This document shows positions 10,442 through 42,019 of a DNA stretch of 64,000 nt, in pieces. The notes beneath the pieces were generated by a model, which had not been told where the DNA came from, searched no databases, and saw only the letters and a program-made list of their open reading frames with translations. The stretch is from Gammaproteobacteria bacterium. GTDB taxonomy: Bacteria; Pseudomonadota; Gammaproteobacteria; Pseudomonadales; Pseudomonadaceae. Position 1 is the stretch's first letter. Each line of letters opens with the position of its first letter. The position numbers were made by a program, and so were the translations under genes. The stretch is taken from NCBI GenBank assembly GCA_012728415.1, contig JAAYFD010000047.1:77562-141561 (forward strand), given 5' to 3'.

Positions 10442-10451
10442 AACACAGGCA

Positions 10452-10516
10452 ATAAAAAAGCCCCTGAGTCTCGACACCAAGGGGCTTTTCCGCGCGGCCA
10501 AGGCCGCCTCAACACG
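10452..10516 (-). ncRNA. Candidate sar/oop-like antisense RNA (about 64 nt)
   Basis: Reverse-strand promoter TTGTAA (10551-10546), 17 nt, TAATAT (10528-10523) sits over the antirepressor start codon. The predicted transcript runs to the minus-strand terminator. Confidence 0.35.
10454..10489. terminator. Bidirectional hairpin terminator (strong on the minus strand, weak on the plus strand)
   Basis: Stem GCCCCT/AGGGGC (10460-10465 / 10480-10485) flanked by A6 upstream and T4 downstream. Confidence 0.6.
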
Positions 10517-10529
10517 GAGTTGATATTAC

Positions 10530-11219
10530 ATGAGAGATTTAACGGTTACAACAGCGGCAAGCATGAGCAGCAGGGAAATTGCTGATCTGGTTGAGTCGCG
10601 CCATGACAACGTGCGAGTGACCATCGAGCGGCTGGCTTCGCGGGCTGTAATTGCTTTACCTGCAATGCAGGAAAAGGCCACTGCAGGCCGTCCGGCCAAG
10701 GAGTACATCTTCAGCGGAGAGCAGGGCAAGCGCGACAGCATTATTGTGGTGGCCCAGCTATCCCCGGAGTTCACCGCTCGACTGGTTGACCGGTGGCAAG
10801 AGCTGGAGTCACGGCAGCATGTCGCGATTCCGCAAACCTACGCTGAAGCACTTCTCGAAGCCGGCCGCCTGGCGAAGATCGCCGAGGAGCAGGCCGCGCA
10901 ACTGGCCATCGCCGCACCCAAAGCCGAGTTCGTCGACAAGTACGTTGAATCCACCGGTCTGAAAGGCTTTCGCCAGGTCGCCAAGCTGCTCAAGGCCAAC
11001 GAGGCGCGTTTTCGTGAGTTCCTGGTAGACCGAAAGATCATGTACCGCCTGGGAGGCGAATGGCACGCCTACCAGAACCACATCGACGCTGGCCGCTTCG
11101 ACGTGAAGACCGGCTCCAGTGATTCCGGCCACGCCTTCAACCAAACCAAATTCACACCCAAGGGCGTCAACTGGATTGCCGGCCTATGGGCGCAGCACAA
11201 CCTGCAAGGGGCGGCGTAA
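10530..11219 (+). CDS. Antirepressor-type protein (Rha N-terminal domain + KilAC/ANT C-terminal domain)
   Basis: ..MSSREIADLVESRHDNVRVTIERL.. (Rha-like) and ..PKAEFVDKYVESTGLKGFRQVAKLL..NEARFREFL (KilAC-like). Confidence 0.75.
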   Translation: MRDLTVTTAASMSSREIADLVESRHDNVRVTIERLASRAVIALPAMQEKATAGRPAKEYIFSGEQGKRDSIIVVAQLSPEFTARLVDRWQELESRQHVAIPQTYAEALLEAGRLAKIAEEQAAQLAIAAPKAEFVDKYVESTGLKGFRQVAKLLKANEARFREFLVDRKIMYRLGGEWHAYQNHIDAGRFDVKTGSSDSGHAFNQTKFTPKGVNWIAGLWAQHNLQGAA

Positions 11220-12226
11220 TGCAGTACGCACTCACCATCAATCAAGCCAGGGCGTTGGAGTGGGGCTTAAATGCCCAGCAAGCGCTGCTGTTCTCATTTG
11301 TCTATGAATGCCCGAGCTGGGCCAAGTCGATATCGAGTGAAGATGGCGTCTTCTTCGCGTTGAGCAAGGCCAAAATCGTTGAAGAGCTGCCCCTTTTAAC
11401 TGACAAACCAGACACTGCTTACAGGCTTTTGAAGCAATTACAGGCGGCCGGTTTAATTGAGCTATCCAGCACATCAAAAATCACCCTTGTGCGACTGACT
11501 GAAAAAGCTAAGTGCTGGAATAAAAAGCATGACGGGTCGGAAATATATCCGAGCAAGAGGCGCGGAAAAAAATCCGAGGTCGGAAATAAATCCGATGTAG
11601 GTCGGAAAAATATCCGAGGTAAGGTCGGAAAAATATCCGAGCTGAGGTCGGAAAAAAATCCGACAAATCAGTATACCAATAATCAGGGTACCAATAATCA
11701 GGATACCAGTAATACTTTGGCGCAGGCCGCTGACGCGACCATGCCTGCCGTGGGTGAGCTGATGCCAGCCGACGACCCTGTCCAGCCCAAAGTCGAAATC
11801 CCTGCGGACATGCCAGGGCCGAAAGACCCGAAAGCCAAAACGTTCAAGACCTGGGCCAACTACGCAATCACTTATCGCCGTCGTTACGGTGTCTGGCCGG
11901 TGTGGAATGCCAGAGTCGCAGGACAACTTGGCAACTTGATCGACCGCATTGGCCATGACGCCGCGCCGAAGGTGGCCGCGTACTACCTGAGTATTTCCGA
12001 TCAGCGGTTTATCACTGAGCAGCACAGCGTTGGTCTGCTGCTGGCCCGTGCCGAAGCACTGCACACCCAATGGGCTACCGGCACCCGTGTCAATTCAACC
12101 ACAGCACGCCAGAACGAGCGCACAGCAGCAAACTTTGAAGCTGCCCAGACTGCAATCGGCAGACTGACTGGTGAAGCTCCAGCAGCAGGAGGATCGATTT
12201 ATGACAACCCGTTCTACGTCCGCTGA
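11219..12226 (+). CDS. Replication initiator (lambda O-like architecture with internal iterons)
   Basis: MQYALTINQARALEWGLNAQQALLFSF.. winged-helix-like N-terminus. The start ATG overlaps the upstream TAA. Iterons lie in the linker-coding region. Confidence 0.7.
   Translation: MQYALTINQARALEWGLNAQQALLFSFVYECPSWAKSISSEDGVFFALSKAKIVEELPLLTDKPDTAYRLLKQLQAAGLIELSSTSKITLVRLTEKAKCWNKKHDGSEIYPSKRRGKKSEVGNKSDVGRKNIRGKVGKISELRSEKNPTNQYTNNQGTNNQDTSNTLAQAADATMPAVGELMPADDPVQPKVEIPADMPGPKDPKAKTFKTWANYAITYRRRYGVWPVWNARVAGQLGNLIDRIGHDAAPKVAAYYLSISDQRFITEQHSVGLLLARAEALHTQWATGTRVNSTTARQNERTAANFEAAQTAIGRLTGEAPAAGGSIYDNPFYVR
11535..11712. repeat. Putative phage origin: six iterons GGTCGGAAAWAWATCCGA plus a tandem GGTACCAATAATCA-type repeat
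   Basis: Iterons at 11535, 11562, 11578, 11600, 11623 and 11646. Each contains the TCGGA..TCCGA inverted pair. They are followed by an A/T-richer tandem repeat at 11671-11712. Confidence 0.75.
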
Positions 12227-13001
12227 CCGCTTGGCTGGAATTGCCCAAATCATCACGGCAACCGCTGAGGTGCTTGGCCATGAAATCACTCCAGCAGCAG
12301 TCGAGATGATGGCGCTGGACTTGGCTGAATACCCTGACCAGCAAATCGCACTGGCCCTGCAAGCGTGCCGCCGCGAACTGACTGGCCGCCTGACTCTGGC
12401 CGCCATACTTGAGCGCATTGCCGTGCTGGATGGCCACCCCGAACCGAATGAGGCATGGGCAATCGCTCTGAGAGCGTCAGATGAAACCGCATCAGCAGCT
12501 ATGACGGCAGAAATCGCAACGGCCCTGCATGCCTCCAGCCCTGTACTGGCCGCCGGTGACGAAGTGGGTGCCCGCATGGCTTTCATCGACAGTTACAAGC
12601 GCTGCTTGATGGAGTCGCGGCGGGAGCGCAAACCGGTGCGCTGGTACTTGTCGCCCGGCCATTGTCCGCATGGTCGCCTTAGCGAAATTGAGCGCATGAA
12701 GCGGGAAGGGATGATCGGAGAGACCGAGAAAACCCAGCTGATCGAGCAGCACACGCAGCAGGCCTTGTTGACTTCGCCGGAAGTGGGCGCGGTTGTCGCC
12801 CTGATTACCGGAAAGCCGGCCAGCCAGTCGCTGACGAATGCGGAGCAGATCGAGCGCGCAAGAATGCTGCGTGAACAGGTCGAGAAACAAAATCAGAAAA
12901 CCCTGCAGCAGCAGGAAGAGACCAGGCAGCAGGAGCGCGCCCGTCACGAGCAGCTGCTGAAGCGTCACGCCGAAGCACTGGCCATTTTGGAGGGTCACTG
13001 A
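12201..13001 (+). CDS. Replication-module protein (possible helicase-loader or accessory protein)
   Basis: AGGAGGA SD before the ATG at 12201. Sits downstream of the initiator. The function is positional only. Confidence 0.5.
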   Translation: MTTRSTSADRLAGIAQIITATAEVLGHEITPAAVEMMALDLAEYPDQQIALALQACRRELTGRLTLAAILERIAVLDGHPEPNEAWAIALRASDETASAAMTAEIATALHASSPVLAAGDEVGARMAFIDSYKRCLMESRRERKPVRWYLSPGHCPHGRLSEIERMKREGMIGETEKTQLIEQHTQQALLTSPEVGAVVALITGKPASQSLTNAEQIERARMLREQVEKQNQKTLQQQEETRQQERARHEQLLKRHAEALAILEGH

Positions 13002-13474
13002 TGGAGCTGATGCTGATGAAAACACCTGCCGGCGCACTGGTTCCTGTGGACAGCGAAAGCCAGGAGCTGCTGGGCAAACTGCCTGTCGGCCAAGGGTTGC
13101 GCGGCAAGTACAGCAGGGCGCGAAACCTACAATTTCACCGAAAAATGTTTGCCCTGTTCAAGCTGGCTTTTGACGCATGGGAGCCTGACGACAGCATGCA
13201 ATACAAGGGCCAGCCAGTGGCCAAGGACTTTGACCGGTTCCGCAAGGACATGACGATTCTGGCGGGGTTTTTTAACCCGGTGGTGAATGTTCGGGGCGAG
13301 ATTCGACTTGAGGCGGAAAGCCTGTCGTTTGCATCAATGAAGGAAGAGCGTTTCGAGCAGGTGTTCAAGGCGGTGCTGACAGCGGTTTGGACCCGGGTAC
13401 TGCAAACGGCTGGGTACAGGAATGAGCAGGAAGTTGAGCGGGTTCTGGAAGAATTATTGAGGTTTGAGCAGTGA
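13001..13474 (+). CDS. DUF1367-like nin-region protein
   Basis: ..KTPAGALVPVD..LRGKYSRARNLQFHRKMFALFKLAFDAWEP.. resembles lambdoid DUF1367 proteins. Confidence 0.6.
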   Translation: MELMLMKTPAGALVPVDSESQELLGKLPVGQGLRGKYSRARNLQFHRKMFALFKLAFDAWEPDDSMQYKGQPVAKDFDRFRKDMTILAGFFNPVVNVRGEIRLEAESLSFASMKEERFEQVFKAVLTAVWTRVLQTAGYRNEQEVERVLEELLRFEQ

Positions 13475-13767
13475 GTAAATTGCGGAAAGCGGCAAAAGGC
13501 AGGCAGTGCCAGATCAGGATTACATGCGTGTGTAACGGAGACTCAGAGACGACCGTGCTAGCCCATTACCGGATGTCTGGCCTGTGCGGCACCGGCACCA
13601 AGCCGAGTGATTTTGTCGGGGCGCACGCCTGTTCTGCCTGCCATGACCAAGTTGATGGCCGGAGTAAGCCGCTCTACCCGAAGGACAAGCTGCGGCTATG
13701 GCACCTTGAGGGAGTGGTGCGCACGCTTTCGCAGCTGGAAAAAGAGGGCTTAGTGGGGGCGAAGTGA
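13471..13767 (+). CDS. DUF1364 (YbcO-like) nin-region protein
   Basis: MSKLRKAAKGRQCQIRI..CNGDSETTVLAHYR..GTKPSD..ACSACHD pattern. Confidence 0.6.
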   Translation: MSKLRKAAKGRQCQIRITCVCNGDSETTVLAHYRMSGLCGTGTKPSDFVGAHACSACHDQVDGRSKPLYPKDKLRLWHLEGVVRTLSQLEKEGLVGAK

Positions 13768-13868
13768 TGGCGTGGATCTGGAAAGGCTTGATCCTGTTTT
13801 TAGTGCTGGCGGTAACCGTTCCGCTGGTGGTCGGCAGTTTTATCGAGAAGGGCAGCAAACATGAGTGA
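13767..13868 (+). CDS. Possible 33-aa membrane peptide
   Basis: MAWIWKGLILFLVLAVTVPLVVGSFIEKGSKHE. Its start overlaps the upstream stop and it is below the ORF-track size cut-off. Confidence 0.3.
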   Translation: MAWIWKGLILFLVLAVTVPLVVGSFIEKGSKHE

Positions 13869-17046: not shown

Positions 17047-18777
17047 ATGGCATTTGCTCATGAAAACGTCGATGTGGCGTCTCAGTGGGCAAAGGAAGTT
17101 TTGCAGGGAAAGCACCCTGCATGCCTGTATATCAAGCAGGCAGTCCAGCGCCACTTTGACGACCTAAAAAAATCGAAGCGGGATGACTTCCCGTATTACT
17201 TTTGCCCGGCGACTGCTGAGCGCAAATTAAAACTGATCCAGCTGCTGCCTCATACAAAAGGCGAGTGGGGCATGAAGCGTCTGCCGCTCACGCTGGAGCC
17301 ATGGCAGCTGTTCGGCCTGTCCAGCATGTTCGGCTGGCTGCGAAAAACTGACAATTACCGAAGGTTCCGGGAGGCGTACTGGGAGGTGCCGCGTAAAAAC
17401 GGTAAATCCGCTATCGCTGCCGGTGTCGGCATCGCCATGTTTGTTGCTGACGGAGAGTTCGGGGCGGAAATCTATTCTGGTGCGACCACAGAAAAGCAAG
17501 CGTGGGAGGTTTTCAGGCCTGCGCGGCTAATGGTTGATCGCAGTCCGCTGCTGAAGTCTGCGAAAGGGATCGAAGTCAACGCTTCGAACCTGAATATCCC
17601 TGCGGACGGCAGTCGATTTGAGCCGATAATCGGCAATCCTGGCGACGGCTCGTCGCCTAGCTGCGCGCTAATAGATGAGTATCACGAGCACGACAGTGCG
17701 GCGATGTATGAAACCATGCTAACGGGCATGGGAGCCAGGAAGCAGCCGCTGATGTTCATTATCACAACGGCAGGGTCGAACATCGAGGGGCCTTGTTACG
17801 ACAAGCGCCGGCAGTGCGTTGAAATGCTTGACGGGCAAGTTCCGGATGATGAGTTGTTCGCCTGGATCTGGACGATTGACGAGGGTGATGACTGGACTGA
17901 CCCGAGCGTACTGGCCAAGGCCAATCCGAACTTCAATGTCTCGGTTTATCGTGAGTATTTGGAAAGCCAGCAGGCTCGCGCTATACGCTCGGCGCGGTTC
18001 ACAAACACGTTCAAAACCAAGCACCTGAACGTATGGACCAGTGCGAAAGCTGGTTTTTTCAATATTCAGTCCTGGGAAGCATGTCGCGACACCAGTCTGA
18101 CATTGGAAATGTTCAGCGGTGAGCCTAGTTTTGCCGGACTCGACTGCGCAAGAAAGCTCGACATGAACTCGTTTGTTCGGATTTTTAAGCGCGATATTGA
18201 CGGAATTACGCATTACTACTGCGTCTCCCCTATGTTTTTTGTCCCGGAAGATGCGGTCTGGCATAACGACAACCAGCGTCTGGCGGAGAGGTTTCAGGCC
18301 TGGGTTAGTCAGGGCTACCTTTTCGATACAGCAGGTGCAGAAGTCGATTACCGGGAGATTCTAGAGGAAGTGCAGGCTGCACATGAGGAAAACCCCATTC
18401 TTCAGGCTGGAATTGACCCGTTCGGTGCGACCGCCCTGCAGCACGCCCTGGATGACGAAGGAATAACTCCGGTTGTCATCAATCAGAATTACACCAACAT
18501 GTCGCCCGCGATGATGGAGCTTGAAGCTGCTATCGAGTCAGGCAGGTTTCATCATGACGGCAACCCGATTATGACCTGGTGTATTTCCTGTGTCGTGGGC
18601 AAGTACTTGCCTGGTAATGACGATATTGTGCGACCGGTAAAGCAGGGCGCGGATAACAAAATTGACGGCGCGGTGGCGCTTTTGATGGCCATAGGGAGAG
18701 CCATGTCGGAGCGTGTCGATGATGGCGAGGACTTCATGGACGCGATACGAAACAGCCTGAACAGGAAAAAGACATGA
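17047..18777 (+). CDS. Terminase large subunit
   Basis: 576 aa. Walker A-like ..[13 protein letters not shown].., ..LIDEYHEH.. and a C-terminal nuclease region. Confidence 0.92.
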
Positions 18778-22472: not shown

Positions 22473-22841
22473 ATGAAAGAAGCATTGATTGCTCAAAAAC
22501 GTTTTTTGCATGACGCCGTCATTCTGGCCGTTGGCGCGCTGTTTTATGCGCACAAGTCAGTGGCTCGCGAGCTTATTGCGACAGGTCTTGCGCGCCAAGC
22601 AACGGCTGAAGAGCTGCAAGCAGCGCAAGGCATTGATGGCGAGCAGGGCAATGACGCAGACAGTGGTGACGCTGTAGATGGCGAGCCTGCTGCTGACGAA
22701 GTAGCGGAAAAAACGCCTGAGAACGAGCCAGCCAAAGAAAAGCAGGAGCAGAACAATGACGCAGACAGTGGTGACGCTGGAGCAAGTGAGGAATCAGCTG
22801 CGCCTGTGCCCAAGCGACGAGGCCGAAAATCAGCATCTTGA
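22473..22841 (+). CDS. Hypothetical acidic protein with an internal NDADSGDA duplication
   Basis: 122-aa ORF after the capsid gene. It overlaps the connector gene by 86 nt, so its extent is uncertain. Confidence 0.35.
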   Translation: MKEALIAQKRFLHDAVILAVGALFYAHKSVARELIATGLARQATAEELQAAQGIDGEQGNDADSGDAVDGEPAADEVAEKTPENEPAKEKQEQNNDADSGDAGASEESAAPVPKRRGRKSAS

Positions 22842-24190: not shown

Positions 24191-24621
24191 GCAAAGGCTC
24201 AGAACTTACCGACAGCCTTGTCGAATGCCTGGGGCGCATATCCACCGGCAACGGCTATGCCACCGACATTCAGGGCGGCTATGTGCATGCGGAAGCGGTG
24301 CCCGATGGTGCCCAGCTTCCTTGCGTGCTGATCAACATCGAGAGCGATGCAGTCACCGGCTCAGCCGGAGTGCAGGCCACTCGTGAGCGCACCTACAGCA
24401 TACAGGTCGCATTCAGGAGGGGCGCAACGGAGAAAGAGCTCAACGCAGCGGCCTGCGACATCTTGCGCGCAGTCGGCTTTGGTCGTCACGAGTACGAGCG
24501 CGAAATCAAAGGGCTGGTCACTGACGAGCAGGAAATCAACTACGACTTTGCCACCAACGGCAGTAGTTACACCACGGTCACCATGTTGGTGACGTTTGTA
24601 TATGTAGAAACCTACGCATAG
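24187..24621 (+). CDS. Tail terminator-like protein
   Basis: ATGA-coupled. 144 aa immediately before the major tail gene. Confidence 0.5.
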   Translation: MSKGSELTDSLVECLGRISTGNGYATDIQGGYVHAEAVPDGAQLPCVLINIESDAVTGSAGVQATRERTYSIQVAFRRGATEKELNAAACDILRAVGFGRHEYEREIKGLVTDEQEINYDFATNGSSYTTVTMLVTFVYVETYA

Positions 24622-24630
24622 GAGCCAATC

Positions 24631-25410
24631 ATGGCCGAACTCATGAAACACACCCAGCTTTTCCGGGGCCCCTGCCTGGTTGCAGATTGGCCGAGCCATA
24701 ACTACGAAGAGCTGTTCAAGCTGCAGGATGTGAGCGCAGAGCCGACCACCAACGAAATCACCATTGCCGACCCGACCCGTATCGGTCTGCCGCCACTGGA
24801 CACCGTTCAGACCGTCAGCCAGATCGACATCAATGGCGAGGCAGTGGATTTTTCCCCGCGTGCCGCAGCGGTCCTGATGTATGGCTCGGTGGCAGAAACC
24901 CCGTCCGGCAGCACAGTTGAAGAGCATGACGCATACATCGGTCGCGACATTGTGCTGTCGGAATTCCCGCTGGAAGTGGATACCGTGACGGACGAAGACG
25001 ATGTGGAGTACGAGCGCAACGTCGACTATGCGGTAACCCATGTGGGCCTGCGCATTCTTCCGGGCGGTGCGCTGGCAGCCAAGATTGCCGCGCAAACTTC
25101 GGTACCTGGTGAAATGAAAAAGACCGCCATCACGGTCGAGTACACCTACCCAGCCGCAGATGTGATCAAGCCGTTCATTGAAGGGCAAAAGCACTTCCGC
25201 GTCCTGTTTGGCCAGATCAACGAAGGTGGCAACAGCGAGCGCCGGCGCATCCGCTGCTTCTACTGCAAGATCAGCCTGAACGGTGGCCTGCCAATCAACC
25301 AGGGCACTGACTTCGGCACCGTGCCGGTCAAGATCACCCTGATGGGCGACCCGAACATTGTTGACGCTGGCGAAGCGTCCATGTGGGACTGGAAGGTCGA
25401 GCGCAAGTAA
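24631..25410 (+). CDS. Major tail (tube) protein
   Basis: 259 aa. Position is upstream of the chaperone and tape-measure genes. Confidence 0.6.
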   Translation: MAELMKHTQLFRGPCLVADWPSHNYEELFKLQDVSAEPTTNEITIADPTRIGLPPLDTVQTVSQIDINGEAVDFSPRAAAVLMYGSVAETPSGSTVEEHDAYIGRDIVLSEFPLEVDTVTDEDDVEYERNVDYAVTHVGLRILPGGALAAKIAAQTSVPGEMKKTAITVEYTYPAADVIKPFIEGQKHFRVLFGQINEGGNSERRRIRCFYCKISLNGGLPINQGTDFGTVPVKITLMGDPNIVDAGEASMWDWKVERK

Positions 25411-25443
25411 AGCGGGCTGAGCAGATGCCTAGTAGCTTCTGCA

Positions 25444-26364
25444 TTATTGCTCGCTGGCTGCCAATAGCTCCATTGCTCTTGGTAGCCGGTTGCGGATGTT
25501 TTTATCTGCAGATGTTCCGGTGAGCGGCTTTCTGGCACCTGATGCAACAAGCGGGTCAGCGTCATGCTTCCTGGCAAGTGCCAACCATGTCTGGGCAACT
25601 CTGATTTCGTGCTTATAGTTTTTGTCTTTGCGAGCAATGATGCAGGCACGAAGAAAGGGCGCGGGTGAGGGTGGTGATATATCGTTTAGGGAGTTTGTTT
25701 TGTACAAGTCCAGCTCGGCCTTGCAGCAAGCCAGCATTGCGCGGAAGTCTTGCGGGTGGCTTTCCAGCCATTCTTTGGTTGTTTTGCCATCATGTTTTGC
25801 AGTCAACAGAACGCGCCCATACCTGCCAGACGGCAACAGTTGGACGAGGCCTGCATCAGTGGCTTTGTGGTCAACGTATGAAGCGAAGTTCAGATATACG
25901 CCGGGCGGATTGCTGTAGACCACCTCTCGGACATTGCCCAAAACATAAAAAGCGGGATCATCAGCCAGCTCGGAATGGCGCTCGGCTACAGAGCGGCGCA
26001 GATATCCGATCTGAAAGCCGTGCACGTAAACCGCGATTGCATTTCGGTCATATGGGTTGTCTGGCTCGCGAACAAAATCGACGGTATCGCCAGGTCGCAC
26101 GCGAGCATGAATAAATGAACTGCGGGATTTTCCACCGGTATCAAAACTGGTGCCTGCAACCGCACAAACAAAACTGTCCAGTGCCTTGTCCCGCGGATGC
26201 GCTGAGCTTGGTGGTGCCACATGCTCAGCGAGATTGGCAGCAAGCGGCTTGCTTGGGAGGTCTGTAGATGCTCGAAAAATCAGGCGCAAAAGCGCAATAA
26301 ACGGGAGCGTGATCAGCGCTGCTATTCCGAGCAGCAGCTCAGTATCTTTGTGTTTCTTGGCCAT
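25444..26364 (-). CDS. Membrane-anchored HIRAN-domain protein with an unknown ~170-aa C-terminal domain
   Basis: N-terminal TM helix LLLGIAALITLPFIALLRLIF. HIRAN-like core ..VAGTSF..RPGDTVDFVREPDNPYDRNAIAVYVHGFQIGYL.. The ATG at 26364 has an AGGAA SD (the track start at 26391 is a TTG). It is the only reverse-strand gene inside the late operon. Confidence 0.75.
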   Translation of the reverse strand: MAKKHKDTELLLGIAALITLPFIALLRLIFRASTDLPSKPLAANLAEHVAPPSSAHPRDKALDSFVCAVAGTSFDTGGKSRSSFIHARVRPGDTVDFVREPDNPYDRNAIAVYVHGFQIGYLRRSVAERHSELADDPAFYVLGNVREVVYSNPPGVYLNFASYVDHKATDAGLVQLLPSGRYGRVLLTAKHDGKTTKEWLESHPQDFRAMLACCKAELDLYKTNSLNDISPPSPAPFLRACIIARKDKNYKHEIRVAQTWLALARKHDADPLVASGARKPLTGTSADKNIRNRLPRAMELLAASEQ

Positions 26365-26474
26365 GTAGTAATTCCTGACTGCCGCCTGCAAATGACCAGT
26401 CTTGCCCAGAAACCTCTTATCTTCCAGCTTATTGGGCTATAGTCTGCCTTTTAATCAAGTGCAGGGAGTAGCCC

Positions 26475-26951
26475 ATGAAATGCCCGAACTGTGATTTTAT
26501 CGAAAAGGACGAAGCCTTTGGGCAGCCGCCAACTTGCCCGAAGTGTGGCGCGATTTATGAGAAAGCGCTGAGGGTTCGCCAGCTGAAAGAGCTTCACCTG
26601 AAGAAGCTAAAGGCTGCGGCAGAGAAAAAGGCCCAGGAGCAGCCAGCCCAACAGCAAGCAGCTGAAAAGCAGGAGGCAGTTGAGCCGCCTGCAGAGCCCG
26701 AAGAAGTTAAAGTCCAGCCAGGAATGGCAGCCAGTATATCCGCTGGGATTGCTGAGGCTCGCGCCGAAAGGCAGCGCGAAGCTGATGAAATTGCAAATAG
26801 GGTGACGAGTAATGTTGTAATAACAGATGTTCAAATCCCGTTTTGGCCTTTGGTCTGGCTGATGATAAAGCTGGCCGTGGCGGCAGCGCCTGCAGCAATA
26901 GTGTTTACATTCGTTTTATCTGTTCTCGGCGAAATAATGCGAGGCATATAA
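26475..26951 (+). CDS. Zinc-ribbon protein with coiled linker and C-terminal TM segments
   Basis: MKCPNCDF..CPKCGAIYEKAL, a charged A/E/K/Q linker, then ..IPFWPLVWLMIKLAVAAAPAAIVFTFVLSVLGEIM. Divergent from the HIRAN gene. Confidence 0.7.
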   Translation: MKCPNCDFIEKDEAFGQPPTCPKCGAIYEKALRVRQLKELHLKKLKAAAEKKAQEQPAQQQAAEKQEAVEPPAEPEEVKVQPGMAASISAGIAEARAERQREADEIANRVTSNVVITDVQIPFWPLVWLMIKLAVAAAPAAIVFTFVLSVLGEIMRGI

Positions 26952-26980
26952 CGCCACACAAACAGAGATTAAAAAATCAA

Positions 26981-27001
26981 ACCCGCTCCGGCGGGTTTTT
27001 T
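26981..27001. terminator. Bidirectional intrinsic terminator closing the moron
   Basis: ACCCGC-TCCG-GCGGGT flanked by A6 and T5. Confidence 0.7.
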
Positions 27002-27015
27002 ATTGCAGGTAATTC

Positions 27016-27384
27016 ATGAAAGAACTGAAAACCATATACCCGGCTCCGGCCACAGAGACCGTAGGCGACCTAACCGCAGAGCTGTATCAGATCAAGATTC
27101 GTAACGCCCAGGCGTATGCCGAGCTTACCGGAGCACTTGCGCCGTTGCTGGCCAGCCCGTCTGAGGCAGCCTGTGCTGCGTTCTGCGCAAAGCACGGTGA
27201 CGCAGCCGTCAAACTGCTGCAAGACCAGACCAGCATAGATCCGGCATCTTTCGACACCATGAGCAGCAATGACCTGATCATCTGGATGGCTCTATTAATG
27301 CTGAGGAATGCCGAGGCTTTCAGTCACGCCCTGCCCGAAGCAATGCAAAACCTATCGGGTGGGGCGAAATCCACCAACGGCTGA
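27016..27384 (+). CDS. Tail assembly chaperone (gpG-like)
   Basis: 122-aa ORF directly upstream of the tape measure. A -1 frame continues to the TMP start. Confidence 0.6.
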   Translation: MKELKTIYPAPATETVGDLTAELYQIKIRNAQAYAELTGALAPLLASPSEAACAAFCAKHGDAAVKLLQDQTSIDPASFDTMSSNDLIIWMALLMLRNAEAFSHALPEAMQNLSGGAKSTNG

Positions 27385-27560
27385 TCAGTGCCGGTCACCC
27401 GCCTGCCGGTATCGGTGACTACACCCTCCCGCAGGTAGAGCTATATCTGGAAGCCATCAGCAAGGCAGACGGTCAGAAGCTGCACCTTGATGCCACGGCA
27501 GCTCGGGCGGCAAACATCAGCGATCAAGATTTCAAGAAATTTATCAAGAGCTTAAAGTAA
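27273..27560 (+). CDS. -1 frame extension of the chaperone (gpT-like part of a G-T fusion)
   Basis: The frame one back from the G frame is open from 27273 and stops at 27558-27560, overlapping the TMP ATG (TAATG). No canonical slippery heptamer was found. Confidence 0.4.
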   Translation, partial: PDHLDGSINAEECRGFQSRPARSNAKPIGWGEIHQRLISAGHPPAGIGDYTLPQVELYLEAISKADGQKLHLDATAARAANISDQDFKKFIKSLK

Positions 27561-32953: not shown

Positions 32954-33282
32954 CCGACAAGATCAAATCCGATATCAATGCCCTGATCGACAGCGAACCA
33001 CCCCGCACGGCACTCCCTGCTATCGAGCCGGTCGGCGGCTACCCTGCCCAGCGAGGGCGCTCCACCTACACAGCGGCCCAGCCGGCAGGCGGCGGTGGTG
33101 GCGGCATCGCCAGCCCGCTGACAGAAACGGACGCGAGCGCACGCACGTACCATGCCGATAGCTATATCCTTTCCGGAGACATGTTGTTCGGAATGATGCT
33201 GCACCCTGTCGACAGTATTTTCATGACGGACGCCAATGGCGGCAGCGTAGAGCTGAGATTTGATATCCCGCCGGAGAACTAG
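32950..33282 (+). CDS. Tail protein, hypothetical
   Basis: ATGA-coupled 110-aa ORF. Confidence 0.5.
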   Translation: MTDKIKSDINALIDSEPPRTALPAIEPVGGYPAQRGRSTYTAAQPAGGGGGGIASPLTETDASARTYHADSYILSGDMLFGMMLHPVDSIFMTDANGGSVELRFDIPPEN

Positions 33283-33283
33283 C

Positions 33284-34969
33284 GTGTTTGACTCAATAAT
33301 ATCGACGGCGATACCCGGCAGGGTTGTGCGTTTTGGAATATCACAGCACGGGCTTATACATTTTCCGCCTGACGGACAAGATCAACTATTGTCAGATAGA
33401 AAAGATCATTTCATAGAAACACGCGCTGGCAGACGTGTAGCTGTAAAGTACGACAAATACTCTATGGCGTACTTGCAAAAGGTATACAGACCTGAGTTCC
33501 TGCCTCGTCCATTTTTATACATGCACCCGTCCGCCAAGCTTGAGGCTGAAGACAGCAGCGGGCTTGATTGGTCAGGATATGTGATATTTTACCAAGGTTT
33601 TGCCGGAGGGTATCTAGATAAATACGACTCTGCATTCACGCCCGATGATTTCAGCCAGGGAATTGTATTAAATGGAAGATATGCCCGCGCGCCTCTACGC
33701 CTAGAGCTTATGACAGATGCGCTTTCCGAGGTAGATGGGTTTTGGCCGGATGCGGGGAGTTATTATCACATATCGACTGACGGAAGATTTCGTGTATTCG
33801 GAAGGCTTGCGAGTATCCGACAGGCAATTGAGTATTCTGACCCTGCCTCCGCTGATTTTCCTGCTAACTACTTTGAGCTATCAGCTGCAGAGCTTTCCGG
33901 AGGAAGCCTGAACAAGGAAGGGCTCCCAGAGATATACTCATCAAGAGTCTCAATTGCGCAGCCACCTCAACCGGAAAAACGACAAGAAAGCAGTTTCGAG
34001 CTGGGAGAGATTGAGGTTCTTGAGGTGCGAGGTGGTGGACATGGGGGGCTCTGCTACGATCCTGATTCTCTCGAAGATTATTACGCTGAAGTCACGCGAA
34101 TTCCCAGAAATCATTCGACTCCGGCTTATAGTTTTTCGAGTAGCGGCGCGACGACCCCTGTGGATGCGCATATAGATTCTGCTGGGGGCGCATCTTTTTT
34201 AACGCTGTCACTGGACTATAAAACCGAAACAACGCGAGAGCAGAGTGTGTCCTTCCTCGGTGGCGGAATGACCACGGAGGCATGCGACCTCTATGGAAGC
34301 GGTGACGGCAGGACGCCGGCCAGCGTTTGGTATAGCACGCGCGAGCAAGAGGGTGTTCACTCTGAGAGTGAGCGCGAAATCACGCTAACCGGCTGGGGCG
34401 AGTCTAGTAGCGCTGTATTCACCGAAACCAACGAGCGAAACACAACCGTCAATAGTAATTTTTTAGACTGGTCAGCGACAAGCACTACCGAGAGCCAAGC
34501 AGAGTTCCAATGGTCACTAACATTTGAGGGCCAAACGATTATGCAGGGTGATGGCGGTGCTAGCGAGGCATCGCTTACCAGCTATCCGGCAATCCCTGAG
34601 TGTGTACGCATTCAGGATATCGGCTCCCTGCCCGGCTATTTTGACTCGCAAGCTCAAATTTACCATGTGATGGATGCGGGGCTAGGGCGCGTTGTTTTTA
34701 TTCGGGTTTTGCCGACAAACCTCAGAGCGGACGGAGTTTGGGCGCTCGCTGCGCACATTGCAGAAGGAGAGCTCATACATTCCGGAGGGGTCAGCTCTAT
34801 TGAAGTTGATAGCGAACGCGTCATTGTGGGCCGCATTTTCGGCTTTGGGAAAAGCACGCCCGGATTTGAGGTGCCTACGGACATGATTCACAAAAAGCTG
34901 TTTATCGCATACGACCCCTTGGAAGAAAAATTCTCTGGTATCCACGAATACCCGATCTTTTATCAGTAA
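33284..34969 (+). CDS. Large tail or host-range protein, hypothetical (lower GC than its neighbours)
   Basis: The GTG at 33284 directly follows the upstream stop. 561 aa. No family recognised. Confidence 0.5.
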   Translation: MFDSIISTAIPGRVVRFGISQHGLIHFPPDGQDQLLSDRKDHFIETRAGRRVAVKYDKYSMAYLQKVYRPEFLPRPFLYMHPSAKLEAEDSSGLDWSGYVIFYQGFAGGYLDKYDSAFTPDDFSQGIVLNGRYARAPLRLELMTDALSEVDGFWPDAGSYYHISTDGRFRVFGRLASIRQAIEYSDPASADFPANYFELSAAELSGGSLNKEGLPEIYSSRVSIAQPPQPEKRQESSFELGEIEVLEVRGGGHGGLCYDPDSLEDYYAEVTRIPRNHSTPAYSFSSSGATTPVDAHIDSAGGASFLTLSLDYKTETTREQSVSFLGGGMTTEACDLYGSGDGRTPASVWYSTREQEGVHSESEREITLTGWGESSSAVFTETNERNTTVNSNFLDWSATSTTESQAEFQWSLTFEGQTIMQGDGGASEASLTSYPAIPECVRIQDIGSLPGYFDSQAQIYHVMDAGLGRVVFIRVLPTNLRADGVWALAAHIAEGELIHSGGVSSIEVDSERVIVGRIFGFGKSTPGFEVPTDMIHKKLFIAYDPLEEKFSGIHEYPIFYQ

Positions 34970-38871: not shown

Positions 38872-39308
38872 CCGTTCATCTTGCGCTGCGCAAGCACGAC
38901 ACGCGAGCATCGGCCCGGCTGATTCAGCTGTGGACGGGTTCGATTTACAGTCACTGCGAGCTGCTGGTTGACGGGTGGTGCTATTCCAGCTCAGCAGTGG
39001 ACGGCGGTGTTCGCCGCAAGCAGATCAGCCTGGACCCAGAGAAGTGGGATGTTATGAGCCTGCCCTGGGCTGATAGTCGACAGGTACTGGAGTTCTTTTC
39101 GGAGACGGATCACTACCGCTACGGCTGGACTGGGCTGGTCTTGAGCCAGCTCTTCAACCTAAACCGCGCCCAGGACAAGGCGCAGTTCTGTAGTCACTGG
39201 TGCGCTGCCGCCCTGCAGCTACCAAACCCTGCGACCTTCAGTCCGGGCACGCTGGCGGGGATTTGTGATTTTATTGGCGGCCTAGTGTGCAAGGAGATCA
39301 CCGCATGA
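38868..39308 (+). CDS. Permuted papain-like (YiiX/C92, NlpC/P60-related) peptidase-like protein
   Basis: ..GSIYSHCELLVDG.. (His region) and ..AQFCSHWCAAAL.. (Cys region). Confidence 0.45.
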   Translation: MTVHLALRKHDTRASARLIQLWTGSIYSHCELLVDGWCYSSSAVDGGVRRKQISLDPEKWDVMSLPWADSRQVLEFFSETDHYRYGWTGLVLSQLFNLNRAQDKAQFCSHWCAAALQLPNPATFSPGTLAGICDFIGGLVCKEITA

Positions 39309-39605
39309 AGATAGCTCTTGCCGGATTCCGCGGCGAAATGCCAATTATTGATGAGCGTCTTCTGCCGCCACGTTTGTGGTGGCGTGGTGGTGGAGCCGAG
39401 AGAAGACGCAGCATGAGTACCGAGTTAAGGATGGCAAGCCTACCTACACAGTCTGGCATAAGGGATGGCTACCGACAGAATGGGATAGACACTCTATTCT
39501 TGATTTTGCTTTACCCGCAGTCGCTGTGGTTCTGTTTTCGATTCTTATCAACTGATTCACTCCTGCCATGCGGGGCGGTGATCAAAGTTGAGCATAAGGA
39601 GTTAG

Positions 39606-40127
39606 ATGATGATTCCAATTAAATACACACTCAGCGACGTAGTTGAAAAAGCAATCAAGCCGGCATATGCACTGCTGCCGGTAAGCATGCGCAGCCGAGA
39701 AGCCACGGCCATGCTACTGGCCATTGGCTTGCAGGAATCCGCTTTTAAGTATCGCCGGCAGATCAAGGGGCCAGCGCGGGGCTTCTGGCAGTTCGAAGCA
39801 GCTGGCGGGTTTCGCGGCGTTCTCCAGCACCGGTCAACCGAGCGGCACGCAGCTGCGCTGCTGGTCGAGCGTGGCCATGGCGGCATGATTGAGCGGGAGC
39901 AATTCGACCTGCTGGAGCATGACGACGTGCTTGCTGCCGGTATGGCCCGGCTGCTGCTGTGGACCGACCCGAAAGCACTGCCGGCGCTGAATCGCCCTGA
40001 TGATGCCTTCGAGTACTACCTGCGCACATGGCGACCAGGTGCATATACCCGAGGCGCAACCGAGCAGCGAACCGAGATCCGCGCGCGCTGGAATCGAGCC
40101 TACGGCGAGGCCATGCAGTATGCGTAA
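39606..40127 (+). CDS. Endolysin, lytic transglycosylase-like
   Basis: ..AMLLAIGLQESAFKYRRQ..GPARGFWQFE.. SLT-type catalytic Glu context. AAGGAG SD. Confidence 0.72.
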   Translation: MMIPIKYTLSDVVEKAIKPAYALLPVSMRSREATAMLLAIGLQESAFKYRRQIKGPARGFWQFEAAGGFRGVLQHRSTERHAAALLVERGHGGMIEREQFDLLEHDDVLAAGMARLLLWTDPKALPALNRPDDAFEYYLRTWRPGAYTRGATEQRTEIRARWNRAYGEAMQYA

Positions 40128-40945: not shown

Positions 40946-41521
40946 GTTTGTGCTGCAAAAAACCGCGGCACAAAACAGCCCGTTCCAGCGCTTTGCCTGC
41001 TTTTCTGGTAATGGAAGGAGAGGTGGCCATGTCACTGAATGTTGTACACCTGCTGCGCACAGCGGCCACGTCGGAGCAAGCTCTGATAGCCATCAAGGGA
41101 CTAGCTGGAGCTGAAAGAAGCATTACAAAATAGCCTGTTGCCAATATTGGTCGAAGTGCATCTTTGGTCTGAACTACCCAAGGCTTTTCATGCCAACATA
41201 GAGCAGGCGTACGTAGTGTTGCAGCCGGGCGTTAAGTCTGAATCCAGAAACATAGGCAACACAAGGTTTGTTGGTAGTTGGCGTCTGCATGCCTACCAGC
41301 GCAGGTAATTATTCAGGCCTTCCTTGGGTCTTGTCAGGCGTAATCGGCCTAATGTCTGCTGGGCTAAGATACTGGAGCCATTGGGGTATCAGGCCGCAAA
41401 CCAAAACACCCGAGCCCAGTGCGTACCATGACCCAGCCTGTACCCCGTTGTCACATCGGCTTTTCCTGGCTGCAAATTCGTAATAGGCTACGCAGCAGTT
41501 ATTGCCCTGGAGCCGTTTTCC

Positions 41522-41941
41522 GTGAAGCACCTGATCGAGTTTTTCAAGATTCTTGCCGTGGCTATCCCTTTCAGTCTGGTGGTTTCCAGTATCGAGCCGT
41601 ACCCGAACCACAGCGAGCTGCTTGTGATGCCGGCCAGTCTGGTGCTGTTTATGGTTGTGGCCTATCTATTCAAGCGGCCACAAAGCCGGCGTCGCTGGCT
41701 GGTATTTGGCCTGATCACGGTGGTTTGTTATGTGATTGCGCTGCTATGGTTCTGGCAGGGGGCCATGCGCGGTTTGTGGTTTCCGCCGGTGCTGCCGGTC
41801 ATTGAGCAGTTTTTCACCGTGGACGGTGAAGGCAAGCTGGATGCGGCGGTCAGTAACCTGTTCCTGATGCTGTGGTTTGTAGGGCTGGTGCTGGGCGGGT
41901 TGCGCTTGTTACAGGCGCAAAAGCCCGTAGTTGTTGACTGA
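41522..41941 (+). CDS. Integral membrane protein, hypothetical
   Basis: 139 aa with about four hydrophobic helices. GTG start. Confidence 0.5.
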   Translation: MKHLIEFFKILAVAIPFSLVVSSIEPYPNHSELLVMPASLVLFMVVAYLFKRPQSRRRWLVFGLITVVCYVIALLWFWQGAMRGLWFPPVLPVIEQFFTVDGEGKLDAAVSNLFLMLWFVGLVLGGLRLLQAQKPVVVD

Positions 41942-41997
41942 TGCTGCATCGCTGCCTGCCTTGACAAGCCGCACAGAAAACGGATAATCCCACCCTC

Positions 41998-42019
41998 GGG
42001 CCGCCAATGCGGCCTTTTT
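41998..42019 (+). terminator. Hairpin plus T5 (terminator of the upstream gene, or a leader element of thrS)
   Basis: GGGCCGC-CAAT-GCGGCC(T) followed by TTTTT. Preceded by TTGACA-16-GATAAT (41961-41988). Confidence 0.5.

Follow-up and report, generated by a model that had tools for sequence, protein, structure and literature searches.

Do two genes that diverge from each other in the middle of a prophage tail operon form one system, or did two separate genes come to lie side by side? The question is raised by a locus in the window, the whole stretch of 64,000 nucleotides that we analysed, in which a gene for a HIRAN protein (gene 1) and a gene for a zinc-ribbon membrane protein (gene 2) are found between the genes for the major tail protein and the tail assembly chaperone. 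The first-pass annotation had read them as a candidate for a single prophage defence or exclusion module, in which a membrane-tethered HIRAN sensor of incoming DNA ends would cooperate with a zinc-ribbon membrane effector. Divergent adjacency in one genome does suggest a two-gene system, but the comparative context points to two separate histories and so removes a tempting false lead. The explanation that we favour, and that we consider probable when taken as a whole, is that a siphovirus tail module here has a cargo slot between its major tail and chaperone genes, and that the two genes in this slot are independent, separately inherited accessory units rather than one system.

Layout and composition of the slot

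Features of the locus are listed in Table 1. Two ORFs lie between flanks assigned by PHROGs and are arranged around a divergent intergenic region, exactly as had been described. Since both have homologues, they are, on comparative grounds, real genes and not chance ORFs. An AGGAA ribosome-binding site precedes the ATG of gene 1, and its homologues likewise begin with MAKK. The gene 1 product is identical to NCBI NLY16645.1, a hypothetical protein from a Gammaproteobacteria MAG; the exact sequence of the gene 2 product is missing from the public protein collection. The ORF map is also consistent with gene 1 being the sole reverse-strand gene of the late operon: between 16.5 and 40.5 kb, each of the other minus-strand ORFs that reach 110 aa overlaps with a longer ORF on the plus strand. 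Minus-strand ORFs at 24361-25194 and 25260-25649 were not accepted as genes, given their overlap with the major tail gene and gene 1. In related loci, chaperone homologues come after gene 2. Megablast of 24600-27500 against 50,697 phage records gave no match.

Table 1. Positions of the two genes, their parts and their surroundings in the window
Feature	Coordinates	Strand	Evidence or remark
Major tail protein gene	24631..25410	+	phrog_807, E 5.3e-41; left boundary of the slot
Spacer, 33 nt	25411..25443		Major tail stop codon to gene 1 stop codon
Gene 1	25444..26364	-	ORF, 306 aa counted from ATG
Gene 1 helical C-terminal domain (C-dom), aa 196-306	25447..25779	-	pLDDT above 90, all-helical
Gene 1 HIRAN domain, aa 60-165	25870..26187	-	Pfam PF08797, Foldseek
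Gene 1 hydrophobic helix, aa 8-30, putative membrane anchor	26275..26343	-	Kyte-Doolittle maximum 2.4; AlphaFold2 helix 7-32
Divergent intergenic region, 110 bp	26365..26474		Sequence
Motif GGGCTATAGTC, containing -10-like TATAGT	26434..26444	+	About 30 nt upstream of gene 2 homologues
Gene 2	26475..26951	+	ORF, 158 aa
Gene 2 zinc ribbon, CxxC..CxxC, aa 1-32	26475..26570	+	
Gene 2 C-terminal hydrophobic helical hairpin, aa 119-157	26829..26945	+	Putative tail anchor
Intrinsic terminator	26979..27001	+	Detected on both strands
Tail assembly chaperone gene	27016..27384	+	phrog_1442, E 6e-05; right boundary of the slot

The two genes differ in composition from their surroundings. GC3 is 0.53 in gene 1 and 0.50 in gene 2, against 0.73 in the major tail gene and 0.64 in both the chaperone and tape-measure genes, and the deviation of both genes lies chiefly at third codon positions. 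The lower GC content noted earlier therefore stands, although the drop had been overstated: overall the two-gene interval has 52.2% GC and the late operon 56.5%. Together with the membrane segments and the terminator, the deviant GC3 bears out the view of this interval as accessory cargo in a tail operon.

Blastn homology between the window and a close relative, L038, stops at 25438, inside the 33-nt spacer, so this spacer is probably a deletion or recombination junction; in a repeat search, no direct repeats indicative of site-specific insertion turned up around the gene 1 insert. A promoter scan revealed no sigma-70 consensus on either strand of the 110-bp spacer, no terminator for gene 1 was recognisable on the minus strand in 25411..25443, and the sequences preceding gene 1 homologues, when aligned, yielded no shared motif. 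The missing sigma-70 consensus and gene 1 terminator count against the favoured explanation.

Gene 2 is surrounded by conserved signals of its own. The motif GGGCTATAGTC is conserved in seven loci (the window, L003, L004, L007, L018, L023 and L038; the L003 version is AGGCTATAGTC) and occurs once in the window; the TATAGT within it is a candidate promoter-like element. The terminator, AAACCCGC-N4-GCGGGTTTTTT, consists of a hairpin plus a T-run, occurs once in the window against zero occurrences expected by chance, and is kept 3' of gene 2 homologues in all seven other loci examined, down to 37% protein identity. The description of this terminator as bidirectional agrees with the hairpin being found on both strands, but it does not close the pair, since it belongs to gene 2 and is conserved in loci without a reverse-strand gene. 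Judged by this conservation, gene 2 is a cassette composed of an upstream motif, the gene and a nearly invariant terminator.

The two genes in related loci

If the genes formed one module, it is their association in other genomes that should reveal it. Homologues of gene 2 with 37-85% identity occupy the same slot in L003-L013, L015, L018, L019 and L023-L026, where they run on the same strand, are set off by spacers of 55-75 nt and are not accompanied by a HIRAN gene; such HIRAN-free slots number about 20, although most gene 2 loci were retrieved via gene 2 itself, so that the conservation of the slot is partly a matter of ascertainment. Gene 1 homologues, in turn, are found at other sites and with other neighbours. 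Full-length homologues follow the tape-measure gene in antisense orientation in L014, L017, L020 and L021, the one in L016 lies, again antisense, between the major tail and tape-measure genes, and those in L001 and L002 adjoin P22_AR_N or Bro-N genes. Wherever tail genes are visible the gene 1 family, which is rare, is antisense, and it usually adjoins genes for Arc/Mnt-like repressors and Bro/pRha/KilA-N antirepressor-like proteins. Gene 2 is present in three of the four tail modules anchored by gene 1 (L020, L021 and L038), that is, in all three that reach the slot, and is absent from the more distant L016, in which the tail tube protein is nonetheless of the same Pfam type.

Co-occurrence of the two genes as neighbours thus essentially fails outside the window, the only other case being L038, a close relative with the same insertion. 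L038 shares 95.4% nucleotide identity with the window over 25438-26190 and 82% over 26394-26552, and the 26394-26474 portion of the spacer has its homologue just in front of L038 gene 2. Given this closeness, the adjacency in the window and L038 would represent one event and not a recurrent association, and because the genes are uncoupled in all other loci they do not appear to be a conserved pair. In L038 an IS21 element separates gene 1 from gene 2, and the opposite flank of gene 1 carries KilA-N, pRha and two Arc genes. A tblastn search (E<=1e-3 to 1e-4) found no homologue of the repressor/antirepressor genes anywhere in the window. As the window and L038 have in common both the divergent adjacency and a weak hairpin in front of gene 2, a lineage-specific functional coupling may exist in these two loci.

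The history of gene 2 also differs from that of the tail genes around it. Its GC3 stays at 0.42-0.50 across loci, against 0.58-0.73 for the flanks in high-GC phages, and equals the flanks in low-GC phages. The major tail protein of the window is closest to that of L009 (82% identity), whereas gene 2 is only 39% identical to its L009 homologue and closest to those of L023 (85%) and L004 (66%). More generally, the gene 2 phylogeny is discordant with those of the major tail, chaperone and tape-measure genes. The GC3 range, maintained whatever the flanks, and the phylogenetic discordance argue that the gene 2 cassette is exchanged among phages as a unit. The same slot is also filled by a 249-aa variant with a different C-terminal half.

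How do the two genes compare with morons in the sense of Juhala et al. 2000? Gene 1 is an extra gene: the distance from the tail tube gene to gene 2 is about 55-65 nt in L003, L004 and L007 and 1,064 nt in the window, where it includes gene 1, and the GC3 of gene 1 falls below the 0.64-0.73 of its flanks. Gene 2 has a terminator, a promoter-like element and deviant composition, but it is not absent from related phages at the same site, being present there in every locus retrieved through it and missing solely in L016.

The two proteins and the C-dom family

The HIRAN domain assigned earlier to gene 1 is well founded. Pfam PF08797 matches aa 64-149 with E 5.3e-15 (55.5 bits against a cutoff of 24.7), and the AlphaFold2 model (mean pLDDT 82.9, about 85-90 in the HIRAN region) confirms the HIRAN beta-barrel fold. 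Foldseek relates this fold to the HIRAN domain of HLTF and to lp_0118, a stand-alone HIRAN protein from bacteria (PDB 4s0n, 4xzg, 3k2y) with E 4e-7 to 1e-4 and target TM 0.65-0.80; the matches to HLTF reach E 4e-7 with target TM 0.68-0.71, and that to lp_0118 has E 6e-5. In HLTF, the 3'-end pocket includes Y93 and D94 of NPYD together with the basic residue that follows the GHL motif. NPYD..IGYLRR of gene 1 aligns with NPYD..VGHLKK of HLTF, so that both the NPYD and the basic motif are conserved, the pocket residues are retained as Y105 and D106, and D106 is invariant across the gene 1 family. The HIRAN domain of gene 1 would thus bind free 3'-OH DNA ends. Unlike HLTF, gene 1 has no SNF2 helicase or RING module and instead combines the domain with a hydrophobic N-terminal helix and the helical C-dom.

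The N-terminal helix is present in gene 1 as described, but it is not a general feature. It is found in gene 1 of the window, P0002, P0065 and L038 and is under threshold in P0003, P0004, P0050, P0066 and P0067, so it is not conserved family-wide. The net charge is +1 ahead of the helix and 0 past it, and the positive-inside rule leaves the topology unsettled. It is worth pointing out that DNA-end binding would be unlikely if the HIRAN domain were located in the periplasm. In a tblastn search of the 50,697 phage records, gene 1 gave HIRAN-only matches in Pseudomonas phages, and a scan of IMG/VR with the gene 1 alignment produced 54 pattern matches, none of them confirmed.

The C-terminal region that the first-pass annotation could not place turns out to contain a helical domain undescribed in the libraries searched. 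C-dom, about 110 aa at the C-terminus of gene 1, has no match in Pfam, PHROGs, PADLOC, NCBIfam or PDB sequences, and its profile finds nothing among PDB sequences even at E<=10. Foldseek returned TPR-like matches only, with E about 0.2; as these are non-significant, we did not file the domain as TPR and use 'TPR-like helical' as a description. At E<=1e-3 the family comprises at least 176 representative clusters, defined at 50% identity. Its broad alignment (A9) was too diverse for pattern scanning, and a narrower one (A10) worked. C-dom is found stand-alone or fused to HIRAN, DUF4236, PRC barrel or VRR-NUC domains, and its N-terminal partners also include transmembrane segments; the combination of HIRAN and C-dom in gene 1 is a rare natural fusion. 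In IMG/VR, the C-dom gene lies between the tail tube/chaperone and tape-measure genes in 11 of 11 loci and is antisense in 10 of them. Repressor/antirepressor neighbours accompany about half of all C-dom loci. In ten loci (L001, L002, L014, L016, L020, L021, L029, L032, L034 and L038) the C-dom gene is located directly 3' of an Arc/Mnt-like repressor gene and adjoins Bro-N, pRha, KilA-N or P22_AR_N genes.

Gene 2 has 45 homologues, 33 of them full length. The zinc ribbon and hydrophobic C-terminus proposed for it are both supported: C3, C6, C21 and C24 are invariant in 34 sequences, a charged helical linker joins the ribbon to the C-terminal hairpin, and the C-terminal helices are modelled by AlphaFold2 with pLDDT of about 90. 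The mean for the whole model is 64.5, and outside these helices it is too poor for a fold search. All zinc-ribbon matches in Pfam and NCBIfam are under the curated cutoffs, so gene 2 belongs to no named family there, NCBIfam has no match above cutoffs for either protein, and tblastn of gene 2 against the 50,697 phage records found nothing. In its relatives, the start codon is TTG or GTG and the ribosome-binding site is held inside a covarying hairpin of 13-15 bp (dG -17 to -20 kcal/mol, z -5 to -7), which together suggest tightly limited translation from an abundant late transcript. The hairpin is weak in exactly two loci, the window and L038.

Possible origins and roles

Based on these comparisons, gene 2 would be the long-term resident of the slot, a cassette on the late-operon strand swapped among phages as one unit, and its product would be an inner-membrane protein with the N-terminal zinc ribbon in the cytoplasm and a C-terminal hydrophobic anchor. 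Gene 1 would have been inserted later and on the opposite strand, and is probably what is left of a larger cassette resembling an immunity region, with two divergent Arc/Mnt-type repressors and pRha and KilA-N antirepressor-like genes, retained in L038 and lost from the window lineage. Its transcription would be independent of late transcription and would probably take place in the lysogen. In this lineage the N-terminal helix would put the protein at the inner membrane, HIRAN would bind free 3' ends, and C-dom, as the conserved working part of the family, would most likely bind a protein partner. If the two proteins act on incoming phage at all, they would do so separately. Both genes are probably independent accessory, moron-type cassettes, possibly with exclusion-type roles and possibly expressed in the lysogen, and either gene alone may have a defence or exclusion role.

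[quoted passage not shown] Gene 2 resembles gp15 in its type of location, terminator, GC3 deviation and membrane anchor, and by this analogy it would most likely be an inner-membrane exclusion-type protein. However, the two are unrelated in sequence: gene 2 carries a zinc ribbon, nothing of the YebO type matched it in the family libraries, and it is conserved across the whole tail-module family, whereas gp15 is sporadic. In Pfam, PHROGs and NCBIfam neither protein matches the HK97 gp15/YebO or P22 SieA families, so the similarity is positional and topological only. Another example is the 83-aa Tab protein of Pseudomonas phage JBD26, a constitutive late-operon moron whose gene lies between those for the terminase subunits and which blocks tail assembly via the tape-measure protein and confers defence (PMC10884400). 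As here, a single small gene in the late operon of a Pseudomonas prophage is concerned, but the site differs from that of either gene; compared by location, neither Tai nor Tab corresponds to our locus. No counter-defence partner was identified in our locus.

It is unlikely, but deserves serious consideration, that gene 2 is a regular late gene of the tail-module family serving the phage's own cycle, for example by exerting membrane-linked control over tail assembly, lysis timing or DNA ejection. Without exception, gene 2 runs on the late strand, tightly packed between the genes for the tail tube and the chaperone; its zinc ribbon is strongly conserved, and three of the four modules retrieved through gene 1 contain it. 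Late strand, tight spacing and, in relatives, the hairpin-locked ribosome-binding site with TTG/GTG starts fit a regulated late gene of this kind as well, and to that extent they count against the favoured explanation. On the other hand, the GC3 of gene 2 is decoupled from its flanks, its phylogeny disagrees with the adjoining structural genes, the C-terminal half is swapped wholesale in the 249-aa variants at the same site, L016 lacks the gene despite its same type of tail tube protein, and the 50,697 phage records hold no homologue.

For gene 1, the neighbouring genes suggest a comparison with the immI region of P22 (mnt-arc-ant), in which divergent Mnt/Arc repressors and an antirepressor lie within the late region, next to an exclusion gene. 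L014, L020, L021, L029, L032, L034 and L038 likewise combine the C-dom gene with an antirepressor-like gene and a divergent pair of Arc-type genes, whereas the window lost, or never had, the repressor/antirepressor genes. In P22, sieA adjoins mnt, and sieA, orf59a and mnt were together on one plasmid insert (PMC10883804); the analogy between sieA and the C-dom gene is positional only, with no SieA-type match in the family libraries. Gene 1 and the C-dom family might be part of the phage's own immunity or induction circuit, for instance as modulators of the antirepressor next to them, where HIRAN could link the switch to DNA damage via 3' ends at stalled forks. Such ends are recognised by eukaryotic HIRAN, to which gene 1 is a structural match, and the repressor/antirepressor neighbourhood recurs in the ten loci listed above. 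We nevertheless regard this as rather improbable: gene 1 is intact in the window without any such gene, eight of the 11 IMG/VR C-dom loci also lack them, and the N-terminal partners of C-dom are so diverse (transmembrane, DUF4236, PRC barrel, VRR-NUC) that a conflict or accessory role fits better than a dedicated switch component.

It is tempting to speculate further, although we would put little weight on it, that C-dom marks a widespread unrecognised class of accessory genes, possibly lysogen-expressed, antisense in siphovirus tail modules and equipped with interchangeable N-terminal targeting modules. HK97- and D3-type cos phages have 3'-protruding ends. The HIRAN version at the inner membrane could then capture the 3' end of incoming linear phage DNA, a new form of superinfection exclusion, with gene 2 as another exclusion factor that acts at the membrane on its own.

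Should one of these proteins prove to exclude phages, the family would join the few tail-operon morons whose role is known, HK97 gp15 being the best-known of them. Apart from function, the analysis defines a conserved cargo slot and its cassette (upstream motif, zinc-ribbon membrane gene, invariant terminator) for a family of Pseudomonas-type prophage tail modules, and a helical domain family that was situated in the tail-tube-to-tape-measure segment in all 11 viral loci retrieved, mostly antisense and often beside repressor/antirepressor genes.

There is little to recommend the idea that gene 1 is a counter-defence or DNA-protection factor in the phage's own infection, for example by capping 3' ends of its linear DNA against host exonucleases. 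The end-binding motif of HIRAN is intact and HIRAN-only proteins are common in both lytic and temperate Pseudomonas phages, but the antisense position in the late operon and the immunity-type cassettes beside gene 1 in relatives argue for expression uncoupled from the lytic programme, and a membrane anchor would be unexpected on a protein coating phage DNA ends. Least probable of all, and in our opinion very improbable, is the paired sensor and effector: the divergent adjacency and the weak gene 2 hairpin in the window and L038, the hydrophobic segments in both proteins of this lineage and the GC3 deviation of both genes speak for it, but gene 2 stands alone in some 20 slots, gene 1 homologues live elsewhere, L038 reflects a single event with an IS21 in between, the gene 1 helix is not conserved and PADLOC has no model for such a pair.

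The pair had not been recognised as any named defence system, and indeed neither gene belongs to one. HIRAN proteins beside HipA-type kinases are predicted antitoxins or defence genes (PMC11706625), and this 'HipI' arrangement of a HipA-like kinase and a HIRAN protein, PDC-M03, differs from our locus in that no kinase gene is adjacent to gene 1 and Pfam finds no kinase domain in the major tail gene or gene 2. PADLOC gave nothing for gene 2 or the C-dom proteins, and C-dom is outside the PDC-M03B model. The match of PDC-M03B to gene 1 is weak (E 5e-5 to 1e-2, best 21 bits) and covers profile positions of about 134-197 of 232, which correspond to the HIRAN part.

Siting of the two gene families

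The minus-strand HIRAN gene (gene 1) and the plus-strand zinc-ribbon membrane-protein gene (gene 2) were proposed in the first-pass annotation to form one two-gene prophage defence or exclusion module. This proposal is not supported: the two families do not recur as neighbours and are adjacent only in the window and in its close relative, L038. Since their homologues are sited apart, an observation with which a tblastn table across all loci agrees, the co-occurrence expected of a module is essentially refuted. Gene 1 and gene 2 are very probably independent cassettes and not a pair; as judged from sequence, the cargo slot between the major tail gene and the chaperone gene contains two accessory units that are independent of each other.

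The remaining instance of adjacency is L038, to which a protein from the 90% cluster of gene 1 led. Its nucleotide identity to the window is 95.4% across 25438-26190 and 82% across 26394-26552, so that L038 has the same divergent junction. An IS21-family element (IstA, IstB; L038 160-2600) lies in the spacer of its HIRAN gene and gene 2 homologue. The first ~58 codons of the two HIRAN genes have no detectable DNA similarity, the remainder being 95% identical. On the far side of gene 1, L038 carries KilA-N, pRha, a 53-aa Arc-like gene and a divergent 143-aa Arc-like gene, beyond which lie SocA/Panacea and then DUF4760 genes. These repressor/antirepressor-like genes have no homologue in the window, where homology to L038 ends 6 nt beyond the gene 1 stop codon, 27 nt short of that of the major tail gene. 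This is most simply read as one ancestral insertion of a larger cassette beside gene 2, of which the window lineage would then have lost everything except gene 1. The adjacency of gene 1 and gene 2 counts as a single event and not as a recurrent association.

Layout of the slot

The window contains an integrated siphovirus-type prophage, the main features of which are listed in the table together with those of related loci. Beyond the host gene thrS lie genes for a U32 peptidase and for a flavoprotein of the L-aspartate oxidase type (window 41000-52000); no tRNA genes occur anywhere in the window. The ORF map and the terminator scan agree with the layout described at first pass, that is, two ORFs with start codons 110 bp apart and a terminator. 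The ORF map is also consistent with gene 1 being the only reverse-strand gene, as claimed, the remaining late-region minus-strand ORFs of at least 110 aa all overlapping longer plus-strand ORFs. The scan gave no evident terminator for gene 1, and no consensus promoter was detected in the 110-bp spacer.

Features of the window and of related loci (L-numbers denote fetched genomic loci with homologues of gene 1, gene 2 or the C-terminal domain of gene 1)
Locus	Feature	Coordinates	Strand	Remarks
Window	terminase	17047-18777		prophage gene
Window	major tail protein gene	24631-25410	plus	phrog_807, E 5e-41
Window	gene 1	25444-26364	minus	ORF, 306 aa
Window	gene 2 leader hairpin	26441-26474
Window	gene 2	26475-26951	plus	ORF, 158 aa
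Window	terminator	26979-27001	detected on both strands	G+C-rich hairpin then T-run
Window	tail assembly chaperone gene	27016-27384	plus	phrog_1442
Window	thrS	42182-44098		first of host genes, shortly past prophage right end
L004	gene 2 leader hairpin	7773-7806
L018	gene 2 leader hairpin	1018-1051
L023	gene 2 leader hairpin	172-205
L025	249-aa variant of gene 2	1823-2572		C-terminal domain ~115 aa, motif CGEVNAKNxFGAYTGYKRF
L026	249-aa variant of gene 2	982-1731		as in L025
L014, L017, L020, L021	gene 1 homologues		antisense	3' of tape-measure gene; Arc-like gene upstream
L016	gene 1 homologue		antisense	tail tube to tape-measure interval; Bro-N gene adjoining
L001, L002	gene 1 homologues			adjoining P22_AR_N and Bro-N genes
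L009	second cargo hotspot	11744-12647
L011-L012	second cargo hotspot	11547-13266
L013	second cargo hotspot	9308-10681
L014	second cargo hotspot	11407-13785

The low GC content noted earlier for the pair is a real deviation, but the size of the contrast was overstated. Whole-gene GC is 53.1% for gene 1 and 51.8% for gene 2 versus 56.5% for the late operon, just 4-5 points lower. The contrast is clearer at third positions, where GC3 is 0.53 and 0.50 versus 0.73 in the major tail gene and 0.64 in both the chaperone and the tape-measure genes. Three plus-strand late ORFs also have low GC3 compared with neighbours at 0.60-0.74: 22473-22841 (0.45), 33260-34969 (0.49) and 39287-39622 (0.50). They may be further exchanged or accessory segments, and the 569-aa ORF among them may be a host-range determinant.

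The gene 2 cassette

Homologues of gene 2 (37-85% identity) are found in the same slot, on the tail-gene strand and directly 5' of a chaperone homologue. No HIRAN gene lies in the interval between the tail tube gene and gene 2 in L003-L013, L015, L018, L019 and L023-L024, whose head modules are HK97-like or lambda-like. Most gene 2 loci were retrieved via gene 2 itself, and its "universal" presence is best judged on gene 1-anchored loci: of these, L020, L021 and L038 have gene 2 and L016 lacks it.

The terminator 3' of gene 2, AAACCCGC-N4-GCGGGTTTTTTATTGC, is found once in the window and is near-invariant in 8/8 loci examined (window, L003, L004, L007, L009, L011, L018 and L023), even at 37% protein identity. 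Upstream of gene 2, GGGCTATAGTC is kept in seven loci; in the window this motif includes TATAGT (26438-26443), which resembles a -10 element. GC3 of gene 2 stays at 0.42-0.50 regardless of whether the flanks are at 0.58-0.73 or 0.47-0.52. The similarity pattern of gene 2 is discordant with that of neighbouring genes: the window major tail protein is nearest to that of L009 (82%), where gene 2 is 39% identical, and in L023 gene 2 is 85% and the chaperone 31% identical. Taken together, the upstream motif, terminator, GC3 and discordant similarity indicate that gene 2 behaves like a cassette that can be exchanged and that has conserved sequence at its borders. The terminator, previously thought to close the pair, belongs to this cassette. 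It may be a recombination boundary or, alternatively, an attenuator separating the highly expressed tail tube gene from the chaperone and tape-measure genes.

In L025 and L026 this slot is occupied by a 249-aa variant (cluster of 33 members) that combines the zinc ribbon of gene 2 with a transmembrane segment and a membrane and periplasmic half unlike those of gene 2. One sub-lineage (L009 7746-7928, with equivalents in L011-L015, L025 and L026) has a 59-60-aa ORF with GC3 of 0.31-0.38 and no family match; its place, downstream of the tail tube gene and upstream of the gene 2 homologue, is that of gene 1 in the window.

In L004, L018 and L023, the RBS of gene 2 (GGAG) is located inside a 13-15-bp leader hairpin (dG -17 to -20 kcal/mol, z -5 to -7); the sequences of these hairpins differ, the pairing being kept by compensatory changes. 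Start codons of gene 2 are TTG or GTG in L003, L004, L007 and L018. The hairpin is weak in the window and L038 (dG -7, z ~0), and this is the sole feature marking out the two loci with gene 1 next door. The hairpin and start codons would be as compatible with a late gene under tight translational limitation as with a moron.

The 33 full-length homologues share a near-invariant N-terminus, MKCPNCDFI[DE]KDEAFGxPxxCPKCGAIYEKAL, with four invariant cysteines, then a variable charged linker and a conserved hydrophobic C-terminus. The structure model has two C-terminal helices (aa 123-136 and 138-157, pLDDT ~90). Alignment and model thus bear out the zinc ribbon, charged linker and C-terminal hydrophobic segments seen initially; zinc-ribbon matches all fall under the curated cutoffs of Pfam and NCBIfam. 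Gene 2 is predicted to encode a tail-anchored zinc-ribbon membrane protein. The exact protein is missing from the 15-billion-sequence collection, which does contain gene 1 of the same MAG (NLY16645.1); the public record with gene 1 probably lacks an annotation for gene 2.

Gene 1, its C-terminal domain and possible functions

Gene 1 is assigned by its sequence to the HIRAN domain family, and the HIRAN-like core recognised by eye is confirmed by both Pfam (aa 64-149, E 5.3e-15) and Foldseek. In the AlphaFold2 model (seven input sequences, mean pLDDT 82.9), aa 7-32 form a helix, aa 60-165 a beta-rich domain and aa 196-305 a helical bundle whose pLDDT exceeds 90. The beta-rich domain resembles HLTF HIRAN structures (Foldseek E 4e-7, target TM ~0.7) and also Lactobacillus lp_0118. 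Gene 1 EPDNPYDRNAIAV...IGYLRR is aligned to HLTF DPNNPYDKNAIKV...VGHLKK, a segment whose tyrosine and aspartate grip the 3'-OH end in HLTF-DNA structures; D106 is invariant across the gene 1 family. The HIRAN domain thus keeps its end-binding motif intact. It would bind free 3' ends of DNA, and the family-defining helical C-terminal domain (C-domain) would have a protein as its partner.

Among gene 1 proteins, those of the window, P0002, P0065 and L038 have a strongly hydrophobic N-terminal helix and P0003, P0004, P0050, P0066 and P0067 one under the hydrophobicity threshold, which makes membrane tethering a lineage trait and not a family trait. The proposed transmembrane helix thus stands for the window as a putative anchor but is not kept across the family; net charge is +1 before this helix and 0 after it, which favours neither topology.

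Searches of Pfam, NCBIfam, PHROGs, PADLOC and PDB sequences gave no match for the C-domain, and its Foldseek matches, TPR-like, are non-significant (E ~0.2). With the C-terminal 138 aa as query, an exhaustive profile search gave 176 representative clusters at E<=1e-3, 75 of them at E<=1e-10. Most C-domain proteins are stand-alone (110-190 aa). Among the 98 scanned, none has a Pfam model over the C-domain; its N-terminal partners include HIRAN (8), DUF4236 with transmembrane segments (5), PRC barrel, VRR-NUC and zinc ribbon. Full-length gene 1 homologues are rare: four clusters at ~50% identity, P0050 and the P0066 cluster in 5.8 billion sequences.

A pattern scan of IMG/VR with the C-domain yielded 11 loci, with neighbours assigned by PHROGs and cross-tblastn. 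The C-domain gene lies in the tail tube/chaperone-to-tape-measure interval in all of them and is antisense in 10/11. In L029, L032 and L034 it is 3' of an Arc-like gene and opposite a Bro-N gene, and a divergent pRha gene accompanies gene 1 homologues wherever the locus reaches that far (L014, L020, L021). Outside the window, antirepressor-like neighbours occur in 10/19 C-domain loci and paired divergent Arc-type genes in 7/19. Such loci recall the P22 immI region, in which sieA neighbours mnt, arc and ant. In P22, sieA, orf59a and mnt have been described as adjacent (PMC10883804). Gene 1 is probably expressed in the lysogen, since it is antisense to late transcription and relatives have immunity-type cassettes. 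On short contigs, a conserved divergent pair of genes without Pfam or PHROG match is found upstream of the HIRAN/C-domain gene (L001 1324-2141, L002 4284-5047; 90 aa, 58% identical, and 164-182 aa, 44% identical).

The libraries searched gave no match of either gene to a characterised family of exclusion proteins. Membership of gene 1 in PADLOC PDC-M03 was rejected, its kinase partner being absent. The initial view that the pair is not any named defence system therefore holds. Gene 2 most resembles the HK97 gp15 moron, in position and type only; gp15 is encoded in the chaperone-tape-measure interval and is an inner-membrane protein that blocks DNA entry (PMC3594210). As Tab of JBD26 illustrates, a single moron in the late operon of a Pseudomonas prophage can be a constitutive defence (PMC10884400). 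For each of gene 1 and gene 2, an exclusion or defence role is considered less likely than not. The overall reading, two independent accessory cassettes with possible exclusion-type roles, is favoured somewhat. Accessory cassettes in tail operons are of a well-known kind; these particular families are uncharacterised.

Relatives have a second cargo hotspot directly 3' of the tape-measure gene. It is empty in the window, where 29716 is the last position of the tape-measure gene and 29719 the first of the next tail gene; in the relatives its cargo is SocA/Panacea, an HTH-containing M78 peptidase, Fic, or an Arc + HIRAN + pRha cassette.
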